From positions 31,472 through 95,471 of the forward strand of contig JAFGDZ010000026.1 of NCBI GenBank assembly GCA_016931855.1: a stretch of DNA of 64,000 nt, in the 5' to 3' direction. Numbering within the stretch: the stretch's first letter is position 1; every line of letters begins with the position of its first letter. Both the position numbers and the translations under genes were made by a program. The stretch is from Bacteroidales bacterium. Its GTDB lineage: Bacteria > Bacteroidota > Bacteroidia > Bacteroidales > Tenuifilaceae. Shown here one piece after another: positions 51,250 through 53,640 of the stretch. The notes below the pieces were generated by a model. It was not told the DNA's origin. It saw only the letters and a program-made list of their open reading frames with translations, and did not search any database.

Positions 51250-53640
51250 ATGAACCAGCTGAAAGGCATGAACTTTTTGAGAAATCTTAAAATGGGGCAA
51301 AGAATTCAACTCTTTGTCTTTCTCACCGTGGTAGCAACCTATACCATAACGGGCATCGTGCTTTCACGCTTTTCGGTAATCAATGCCGAAAACACATCAA
51401 GAAATCAGGTTAGCGTTTACATTAACACCCTGCAAAGCATAGTTGACCTTCAGGAACGCATAACCAAAAACGGTATAGACCAAACAGATATAACAGCCCT
51501 AAAAACGCACTTTTATAAAGCCGCATTTCACAAAACCGATTTCCCTTTCATCCTAAGTAATACCGGACGCTACCTGCTACATATAACAAAGGAGGACCAA
51601 CGTATTCCTAAAGATATCTTTGTTCAAATAGCAAGCAACCCCAACAGGCAAGGGTGGATTACGGTTGAAACAACACAAGGAACCGAAGAAGTTTACTACA
51701 AATACATTAGCGAATACGACATATACCTTGGCATTACCACCCCATACAAAGAAATAGTTAAAGACGTAAAACAGAACCGCTTTTTAATGATTCTTGTGGT
51801 AACTCTTGCCATAGGCCTTTTCTTTATAACAGTATTGCTAATAATAAAGCCAATAACAAAAACGATTCAACAAGTTAACGACACCATTAAGATGATGGCG
51901 CTTGGGCTTGAGGGGCATAAGCTTAACCGAGAGCAAAACGACGAGCTTGGCCAGATTACAGAATCGCTAAACACACTTACCGAAGGGCTAAGCAGAACAT
52001 CTCACTTCGCTAACGAACTTGGGAACAACAACCTAAACGCCGAGTTCCAACCCCTTAGCAACGAAGACATTCTTGGCAACGCCCTTATATCCATGCGCAA
52101 TAGCCTCAAAGCAGCCGAAATAGAAGAGAAACGCCGCAAGCAAGAGGACGAAACCAGAAACTGGATTACCTCTGGACTTGCCATGTTTGGCGATATACTG
52201 CGCCAAAACAACAACAACCTTGCGCTCCTTGCCGATAGCGTTACCCAAAATTTGGTAAACTACCTAAACGCGAATCAAGGCGGACTATTCATTTACAATA
52301 ACGACGATACATCAAACCCACACCTTGAACTTGTATCGGCCTTTGCATACAACAGAAAAAAGTTCTTTGAAAGGACAATTGCCCTTAACGAAGGGTTAGT
52401 TGGCACCTGCGCCGTAGAAAAGAACACCATATACCTAAAAGAGATTCCCGATGGTTATATTACCATAACCTCAGGATTAGGGGAAGCAACACCTACATCG
52501 CTACTAATTGTACCACTAAAACTAGAGGACACAATTTTTGGAGTAGTAGAGATAGCCTCATTTGCCGAGTTCTCTCAACACGAAATTGAATTTGTTGAGA
52601 AAATTGGCGAAAGTATTGCCTCAACCCTTTTCTCCGTAAAGAATGCCATTCGCACCACCCATTTGCTGGAGCAATCGCAGCAGCAACGTGAGGAAATGGC
52701 AGCACAAGAAGAGGAAATGCGCCAAAATATGGAGGAAATGCAAGCCACACAGGAAGAGATGGCTCGCAAAACCATTGAGATGGAAGGAATATCTAAAGCC
52801 ATTGACCAAGCGCTAATATACTGCGAGCTAGACGAGGATGCCAATATTTTCCTTCCTAACGATAACCTAGCCGCAGCAATGGGCTACCCCAAGCATGAAC
52901 TCGATGGAGTTAACCTAAGCGAGATTGTCCATATCAGCAACAAAAAGGAGATTGCCGCAATTCGTAACGAGATTGCCCTTGGCGCTCCATACAAAGGAAC
53001 CCTGCACCTAATTAATCGCGATGGACAGGATCTCTACCTGCACACTAACATAAGCCCAACCTTTGACGAGCTTGGTGGTATTTACAAAATCATTCTAATT
53101 GGTCAGGATATAACCGAAAGCAAGCTACTGGAGATAAAAGCCCAGAAACAAGCAGACGAGATAGAGGCAAACCTTGTAGAAATAAAGGCAGAGCAACAGC
53201 TTGCCCAAATGAAAGAGAACGACATTAAGGGTTTACTCCAAGCACTGGACACAACATGCCTAATTACAGAAATTGAACTTTCTGGGAAAATCACCTATAT
53301 AAACAATAAGAATGTGGAAACACTAGGTGATCCAAAAGATAAAATTGAAGGTAAGTACCACCGCGATTTGGATGGCCTTGCAAAGAAAAGTCCTAAAGAG
53401 TACGAGGCATTCTGGAACAGCCTACTTTCTGGCATTTCGCAGAACAGGGTATTTAGCCTAACCGTAAATGGCATTGAGAAATGGATATCGGAGCACTACA
53501 CCCCTGTAACCGACGATAATGGTAATGTAACCAAGGTAATAAACATTGGCTTCGACATAACCGACAGCAAGGAGAAAGAGAAAGAGATGCAACGCCTTAT
53601 TGCAGAAATAGAACAGCTAAAAAAGAACAACAATAAATAA
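51250..53640 (+). CDS. membrane sensor with TM, HAMP, GAF, MCP-like methylation heptads and PAS domains
   Basis: N-terminal TM and HAMP-like region (about 51800-52050). GAF domain (about 52250-52650). Stretch [31 protein letters not shown] (52671-52775) matches the MCP methylation-site consensus EExxA[ST]. Followed by two PAS-like segments. Confidence 0.7.
   Translation: [796 protein letters not shown]

Follow-up and report, generated by a model that had tools for sequence, protein, structure and literature searches.

Can the enzymes of chemotactic adaptation act on sensors that are not chemoreceptors? Reversible glutamate methylation is the classic means of adaptation and memory in chemotaxis, and it is usually viewed as a property of methyl-accepting chemotaxis proteins (MCPs). 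The question is raised by a 64,000-nucleotide stretch of DNA from a Bacteroidales bacterium of the Tenuifilaceae (GenBank assembly GCA_016931855.1, contig JAFGDZ010000026.1, positions 31,472 to 95,471 of the forward strand), hereafter called the window. It encodes two membrane sensors, named sensor 1 and sensor 2, which carry heptads with glutamate pairs between a GAF and a PAS domain, together with CheR-type and CheB-type proteins. We lean towards reading the Glu-pair segment as a methyl-accepting signalling helix that does not belong to the MCP family, and we rate this view somewhat better than even. Judged from sequence, the phosphatase pathway encoded here, which is not one of chemotaxis, is probably tuned by reversible glutamate methylation of the kind known from chemotaxis.

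Glutamate-pair heptads in two sensors

A preliminary description of this DNA had placed methylation heptads between the GAF and PAS domains of two sensors. The peptides it quoted were present in both proteins, and Pfam assigned a GAF domain before and a PAS domain after each of them. Each sensor contains four EE[ML]xxxx heptads, one of which is an exact EExxAT, and the pattern Nx-EEM-[QR]-AT-[QH]-EE is indeed shared by the two. The sensor 2 motif stretch, as read from the open reading frame (ORF) at 55839-58463, is ...EELRENEEELRQNAEEMRATHEELEK... One detail needed correction: the span 52671-52775 contains the sensor 1 motif, but it is one base out of frame. The proposed fit to the chemoreceptor consensus EExxA[ST] is exact for one heptad of the four and partial for the remaining ones.

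The EExxA[ST] hexapeptide by itself is weak evidence. It occurred four times in the 22,063 amino acids (aa) of the window ORFs, and two of these occurrences were outside the sensors. Runs of at least three consecutive EE[LMIV] heptads were found only in these two sensors among the window ORFs. In the same heptad and motif scan, no further segment of either sensor resembled a methylation site.

Sensor 1 residues 228-640 were modelled using AlphaFold2 with a 41-sequence alignment, and the mean predicted local distance difference test score (pLDDT) was 90. As had been supposed, the segment was helical in the model, with one unbroken helix running through the sensor 1 motif. The predicted helix comprised residues 216-294 of the modelled fragment, and the motif lay uninterrupted inside it. 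When Met was placed at position d, the EE pairs fell at the exposed positions b and c, A-T fell at f and g, and the a positions were mostly polar. This register is that of a marginal coiled coil, which is typical of signalling helices. A Foldseek search against the PDB returned only generic sensors with GAF/PAS helical spines (phytochromes, PDE6, and WalK).

Conservation of the motif

The motif was nearly unchanged in homologues that were otherwise 33-55% identical (79 related genomic loci). A profile built solely from the two window copies found 444 distinct instances, which were used to calculate residue conservation. The central EEE was conserved at 95-97%, RQN at 96-97%, and the next EE at 97/97%. 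The A, T, and Q residues were conserved at 86%, 89%, and 90%, respectively. The five Met positions interchanged with Leu, with M/L shares of 51/46, 65/31, 73/13, 41/56, and 47/18%. At the outer pairs, the main substitution was E to Q, as at MCP sites.

Among 51 exact copies of the 19-aa core, 50 distinct nucleotide sequences were counted, and the synonymous sites were saturated. Strong selection is thus at work at the protein level, and a DNA repeat or gene conversion was ruled out as the source of the invariance. Because the motif is nearly invariant while its synonymous sites are saturated, chance and low complexity were excluded as well.

Proposed methylation enzymes and output genes of the cluster

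CheR1 is the proposed writer. The product of 50404-51243 had been taken for a CheR, and both its Pfam match and its intact key residues bear this out. The equivalents of E. coli R98, E129, D154, and Y235 were present in the window protein and in 47 of 47 orthologues. Its gene immediately preceded that of sensor 1 wherever the locus had enough flank, and sensor 1 orthologues followed CheR1 without exception in 45+ loci. For CheB, the proposed eraser, the equivalents of the catalytic triad S164/H190/D286 were intact in the window and in all 44 orthologues. Across loci, the identities of CheR1 and CheB were ~82% and ~87%, respectively, versus ~50% for sensor 1.

The second CheR paralogue, CheR2, is divergent. 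The equivalent of D154, the SAM-ribose (S-adenosylmethionine-ribose) Asp, is Y in the window and V/T/Y/I/A in 44 orthologues, and the STGEE/SAM motif is degenerate. The CheR fold and the equivalents of R98 and Y235 are kept. By its residues, CheR2 may be an inactive pseudo-methyltransferase. A CheR of the same type as CheR2 was also present in a divergent cluster (L073).

The small membrane GAF protein encoded between CheB and sensor 2 belongs to the same GAF subfamily as both sensors. No Glu-pair motif was found in its orthologues (0/42). The window protein stops (…TNKLIEE*) exactly at the point where the Glu-pair heptads would start.

The order CheR1, sensor 1, CheR2, CheB, small GAF protein, sensor 2, SiaB, SiaC was the same in >40 Bacteroidales loci. 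These loci came from Bacteroidales assemblies, nearly all of them metagenome-assembled bins, with Perlabentimonas and Tenuifilaceae among them. CheA, CheW, CheY, and an MCP signalling domain were not detectable in the 64-kb window.

The end of the cluster resembles a Sia pathway. The C-terminal region of sensor 2 matched NCBIfam SiaA at an expectation value (E) of 4.1e-51, under the equivalog cut-off. The SiaC-family protein matched NCBIfam SiaC at 4.8e-26, likewise under the equivalog cut-off. Wherever the flank was long enough, the TerB-ABC transporter gene was directly 3' of SiaC, and this held for the clusters without CheR/CheB too. Its product was 78-87% identical across loci and 60-62% identical in these sister clusters. 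The transporter is a candidate SiaC target, or output, in place of a diguanylate cyclase.

Sister clusters lacking CheR and CheB

Five sister loci (L049, L051, L053, L055, and L077) contained genes for a sensor 1-like protein, a sensor 2-like protein, SiaB, SiaC, and TerB-ABC (e.g., L055:7443-17877). CheR1, CheR2, CheB, and the small GAF protein were absent from all five loci, and these genomes could encode CheR/CheB elsewhere. The sensor 2 homologue of the sister clusters kept the helix length and LRQNA. Its EE pairs were swapped (TEEL to TKKL, EEEL to EDVL, AEEM to AKQM, and HEEL to QLEL), and AT was changed to QT. The loss of the sensor 2 EE pairs in clusters without CheR/CheB suggests, though not conclusively, that the pairs serve methylation.

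Comparison with MCP methylation helices

The preliminary description had held that the surrounding protein is not a canonical MCP signalling domain, and we agree: there was no MCPsignal match, no hairpin, and no return helix. Pfam gave no PF00015 (MCPsignal) match with the whole sensor proteins at E<=0.01 or with the isolated linkers at E<=10. A phmmer search against the PDB found no MCP among the solved structures. Neither AlphaFold2 nor Pfam indicated an antiparallel hairpin, a conserved kinase-interacting tip, a second methylation helix, or a four-helix bundle.

The heptads were also compared with those of E. coli receptors. The register appears to correspond to that of Tsr/Tar methylation helix 1 (a hydrophobic, b-c EE, d hydrophobic, and f-g A-T), as had been expected. 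A hidden Markov model (HMM) of 246 motif segments scored <=0.1 bits against Tar, Tap, and Tsr, and its best local match in all three was methylation site 3, M-E-Q-L-T-A-T. A 29-sequence motif profile was aligned with E. coli Tsr/Tar/Tap using hhalign. The sole match joined motif columns 16-36 to Tsr 296-316, with 43% identity over 21 columns and without significance (E=0.12, probability 0.5%). It put E482, E489, and E496 of sensor 1 opposite Tsr Q297, E304, and Q311 (sites 1-3). Column-shuffled profiles equalled its score in 8 of 300 trials. On these alignments, the register match to methylation helix 1 appears real and modest.

As the profile similarity to MCPs was not significant, MCP homology or a transplanted origin is not established. 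The idea of a "transplanted" adaptation module was thus not upheld; the motif stands on its own as a cassette and was found in 3,245 protein clusters. MCP-family membership was rejected, with Pfam, PDB phmmer, the motif HMM, and hhalign all giving no significant match.

CheB-CheR fusion proteins

Heptads of the same type were found in CheB-CheR fusion proteins (KEGG K13924). The first query gave fragments of <=79 aa, annotated as CheB/CheR fusion, with NEELQS[TS]NEELETSKEELQS heptads upstream of PAS_10, and these were then confirmed via contigs. A sample was collected by searching with a CheB-CheR ORF, and intact proteins of >850 aa were counted (n=103). All 103 contained at least three, usually ~6, consecutive EE-L-x-[ST]-[ST]-N heptads directly after CheR, near aa 690, and before PAS_10. 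Each fusion heptad fits E-E-x-x-[AST]-[ST]. The hosts of the fusion proteins (P0290-P0409, L080:4083-6815, and L081:3863-6656) included Verrucomicrobia, Deltaproteobacteria, Brocadia, and others. No functional study of K13924 fusions was found in the literature, where they appear only as K13924 in genome reports.

The fusions and the present sensors have in common an EE[LM]xxxx heptad array directly N-terminal to PAS and tied to CheB and CheR, and both sensors share at least three heptads before PAS. They differ in that the enzymes and the heptads are on one polypeptide in the fusions, whereas they are encoded by separate genes here. The consensus also differs (EELQS[TS]N in the fusions, another one here), and the fusions have no GAF domain.

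Spread of the cassette

The two-copy profile was searched against 1.84 billion proteins. At E<=1e-3 it retrieved 3,245 cluster representatives, of which 728 passed E<=1e-10, and the motif often occurred 2-9 times per protein. The best 149 proteins showed the cassette in several settings: following a linker-GAF unit, separating one PAS domain from the next, repeated in tandem up to nine times, or ahead of PP2C. Many of these proteins had no output domain.

Several of the individual proteins have regular arrays. P0141, P0142, P0153, and P0244 are among the proteins with 4-9 cassette copies. P0141 has six cassettes exactly 70 residues apart after one GAF, the central ones being nearly identical, and it has no recognisable output domain. 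In P0153, PAS and the cassette alternate five times. P0281 (841 aa) is a true MCP (PAS_3, PAS_9, HAMP_2, and MCPsignal), and it carries the cassette near its N-terminus, besides its own MCP adaptation region.

Proposed mechanism and alternative explanations

From the observed sequence, domain order, conservation, synteny, and enzyme key residues, and from the predicted continuous GAF-to-PAS helix, we infer methylation at specific sites, dimerisation, and the whole downstream path in the following form. CheR1 with SAM would methylate the second Glu of the pairs in both sensors (Table 1). The receiver-less CheB would strip the methyl groups, and at any site that the gene specifies as Gln it would act as a deamidase. 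Each chain could have as many as eight acidic side chains neutralised, which would change how a marginal dimeric coiled coil packs or how stiff it is. The altered helix would reset how strongly GAF or upstream input drives PAS and, in sensor 2, PP2C. The PP2C of sensor 2 would oppose the SiaB-family kinase on the SiaC-family phosphoprotein. The probable target of SiaC is the adjoining TerB-ABC transporter, given the lack of a diguanylate cyclase. Sensor 1 has no output domain and therefore would act as a co-receptor. CheR2 is perhaps a scaffold or binder, and the small GAF protein is perhaps a partner that cannot be methylated. Since CheB lacks a receiver, feedback would come only via conformation-dependent access to the sites. 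This functional reading is plausible, with several independent lines of context in its support.

Several results weigh against methylation. Only one heptad of four fits EExxA[ST] exactly, and the hhalign match to Tsr is not significant. The near-invariance of the motif exceeds what is usual for MCP methylation sites, and it could reflect binding to another conserved partner. None of the 149 best-scoring proteins had a CheR or CheB domain fused to the motif. The dispersed motif paralogues that were examined mostly had no CheR/CheB within 8-10 kb and lay in unrelated neighbourhoods. MCP genes are often likewise dispersed relative to cheR and cheB, so the scattered paralogues neither support nor refute methylation. 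In the sister clusters, the sensor 1 homologue kept only the central MEEMRAT of the heptads, and the five loci probably represent one lineage, or a single evolutionary event.

These results leave room for a conserved but unmodified structural signalling helix, that is, a coiled-coil linker duplicated with PAS, with CheR1 and CheB acting on another substrate in or outside the cluster. We consider this unlikely, yet a serious alternative. The setting of the cassette after GAF, between PAS domains, and in tandem in thousands of clusters, the absence of enzyme fusions among the top proteins, and the paralogues with no enzyme genes nearby are what such a linker would give. The Foldseek neighbours are ordinary GAF/PAS helical-spine sensors as well, and the similarity to MCPs is not significant. 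However, a purely structural helix gives no reason for exposed E, R, Q, N, A, and T residues to stay invariant while its core swaps M and L. Neither sensor offers another methylation-site-like segment, and the EE pairs of sensor 2 were lost exactly where the cluster has no CheR/CheB. The same heptad type is also fused to CheB-CheR in 103 of 103 proteins. A helix recognised by binding rather than by covalent modification is a different possibility, and a rather improbable one in our estimate. A conserved partner would then dock on the segment, for instance the degenerate CheR2, the helix of another sensor, or a protein encoded elsewhere. Its exposed residues are more conserved than typical methylation sites, sensor 1 lacks an output domain, and CheR2 keeps its fold, R98, and Y235 without D154 and with a degenerate SAM motif, as a binder might. 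Against this, the key residues of CheR1 and CheB are intact, both proteins are far more conserved than sensor 1, and the outer pairs alternate between E and Q, as would suit modification sites. Binding and methylation are also not mutually exclusive. A Met/Glu-rich metal-binding or redox-sensing stretch was considered as well, as five Met residues recur at i, i+7 beside carboxylates. It has next to no likelihood and was rejected, for Leu freely replaces every Met in homologues and sensor 2 itself has Leu at three of the positions.

Coordinates and neighbouring genes

The features of the cluster are listed in Table 1. The HAMP of sensor 1 scored 18.2 bits, under the Pfam cut-off of 25, and no HAMP was called in sensor 2 by Pfam. 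The ORF listed for sensor 2 begins with a TTG and shares 11 bases with the end of the small GAF gene (window 55839-55851); an in-frame ATG at 55851, four codons downstream, is an alternative start.

Table 1. Features of the sensor cluster in window coordinates
Feature	Position	Strand	Description
CheR1	50404..51243	+	CheR-type glutamate O-methyltransferase; proposed writer; Pfam CheR 4.6e-39 and CheR_N
Sensor 1	51250..53640	+	796 aa; two transmembrane segments, weak HAMP, GAF, Glu-pair helix, PAS, PAS; no output domain (Pfam)
Continuous 79-residue helix	52576..52812	+	Sensor 1 aa 443-521, from GAF C-terminal helix to PAS N-cap; predicted by AlphaFold2, block pLDDT 88-97
Sensor 1 Glu-pair heptads	52690..52770	+	aa 481-507; predicted acceptors E482, E489, E496, E503
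CheR2	53657..54487	+	Divergent CheR paralogue; Pfam CheR 7.1e-21
CheB	54494..55051	+	Methylesterase domain alone, no receiver; proposed eraser and deamidase; Pfam CheB_methylest 1.6e-47
Small membrane GAF protein	55058..55849	+	Same GAF subfamily as both sensors
Sensor 2	55839..58463	+	874 aa; two transmembrane segments, GAF, Glu-pair helix, PAS, PAS, SiaA-type PP2C/SpoIIE phosphatase (Pfam)
Sensor 2 Glu-pair heptads	56823..56900	+	EELRENE-EELRQNA-EEMRATH-EELEK, aa 329-354; predicted acceptors E330, E337, E344, E351
SiaB-family protein kinase (DUF6272)	58503..59078	+	NCBIfam NF038262 179.8 bits vs cut-off 85; Pfam DUF6272
SiaC-family regulatory phosphoprotein (DUF1987)	59092..59475	+	Pfam SiaC 3.6e-43, 146.5 bits vs 24.5
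TerB-ABC transporter	59517..62606	+	1029 aa; N-terminal TerB, ABC_tran, ABC2_membrane (Pfam)

The cluster is flanked by a 257-aa ORF (49339-50112, +) and a 302-aa ORF (62668-63576, +), neither of which had a Pfam match. Some of the related loci also have the 257-aa ORF and an Exo_endo_phos protein (48195-49250 in the window) ahead of CheR1. Elsewhere in the window, two large type IX secretion system surface proteins are encoded. One has 4854 aa (26074-40638, -) with 21 Big_9 repeats besides cadherin-like ones, and it bears the CHU_C signal for type IX secretion; the other has 1892 aa (9289-14967, +) with LTD, Big_5, and CHU_C domains. Such proteins accord with a Bacteroidota origin of the DNA.

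Comparison with known systems

By analogy, the closest precedent is RsbM/RsbK. The CheR-type RsbM of Bacillus cereus methylates RsbK on the signalling helix that follows HAMP-GAF (PMC4574943). RsbK has the architecture CHASE3-HAMP-GAF-S-helix-HK-REC, and its methylation represses a PP2C-driven sigma-B partner switch (PMC4574943; PMC12848376). No methylesterase is involved (PMC4574943). In both systems, a CheR-type gene adjoins the gene of a membrane sensor in which HAMP and GAF are followed by a helix, and the pathway ends, here by prediction, in a PP2C-driven partner switch; the helix after GAF is the methylated element in RsbK. RsbK differs in being a hybrid histidine kinase with a receiver, and it works with a separate PP2C response regulator, RsbY, and without an esterase. 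The present cluster has two sensors, with PAS after the helix and PP2C fused to sensor 2. It also has two CheR paralogues, CheB, and SiaB/SiaC instead of RsbV/RsbW. HisKA, HATPase, and REC outputs were absent from the Pfam annotation, in which sensor 1 ends with PAS-PAS and sensor 2 with PAS-PAS-PP2C, and the likeness to RsbK is one of architecture.

The Tsr/Tar adaptation region also has heptad-spaced [EQ][EQ] at b and c, hydrophobic a and d, A-T at f and g, and accompanying CheR and CheB genes. The output here is PAS/PP2C and not CheA, and the sequence similarity is not significant. As in Pseudomonas aeruginosa SiaABCD, the genes for a PP2C phosphatase, a SiaB-family kinase, and a SiaC phosphoprotein are clustered, whereas the SiaD diguanylate cyclase is missing and a TerB-ABC transporter follows instead. 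In the literature searched, a CheR/CheB/GAF/PAS input layer was not described for Sia. No description of the motif or the cluster was found in the literature either, where several queries were noisy and only the RsbK/RsbM papers were relevant. What is new relative to the known methylatable signalling helix is the esterase, the two-sensor arrangement, the Sia-type output, and a very large cassette family.

Implications

The locus holds a putative writer, a putative eraser, and two candidate substrates, whereas the existing non-MCP precedent, RsbM/RsbK, has no esterase. A wider idea is possible, though we hold it tentatively and would not count on it: in Bacteroidota, CheR/CheB may form a general MCP-independent adaptation system, in which a near-invariant methyl-accepting cassette, …QEEE[ML]RQN[ML]EE[LM]xATQEE…, occurs 1-9 times in thousands of GAF/PAS sensors. 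If so, the multi-cassette proteins would be graded methylation memories that feed PP2C/SiaBC switches and transporters, not flagellar motors. If the cassette is methylated, the abundant, uncharacterised CheB/CheR fusions would gain a testable role. Adaptation by methylation would then also cover a broad class of sensors outside chemotaxis, in a phylum, Bacteroidota, that is important in gut and sediment communities.

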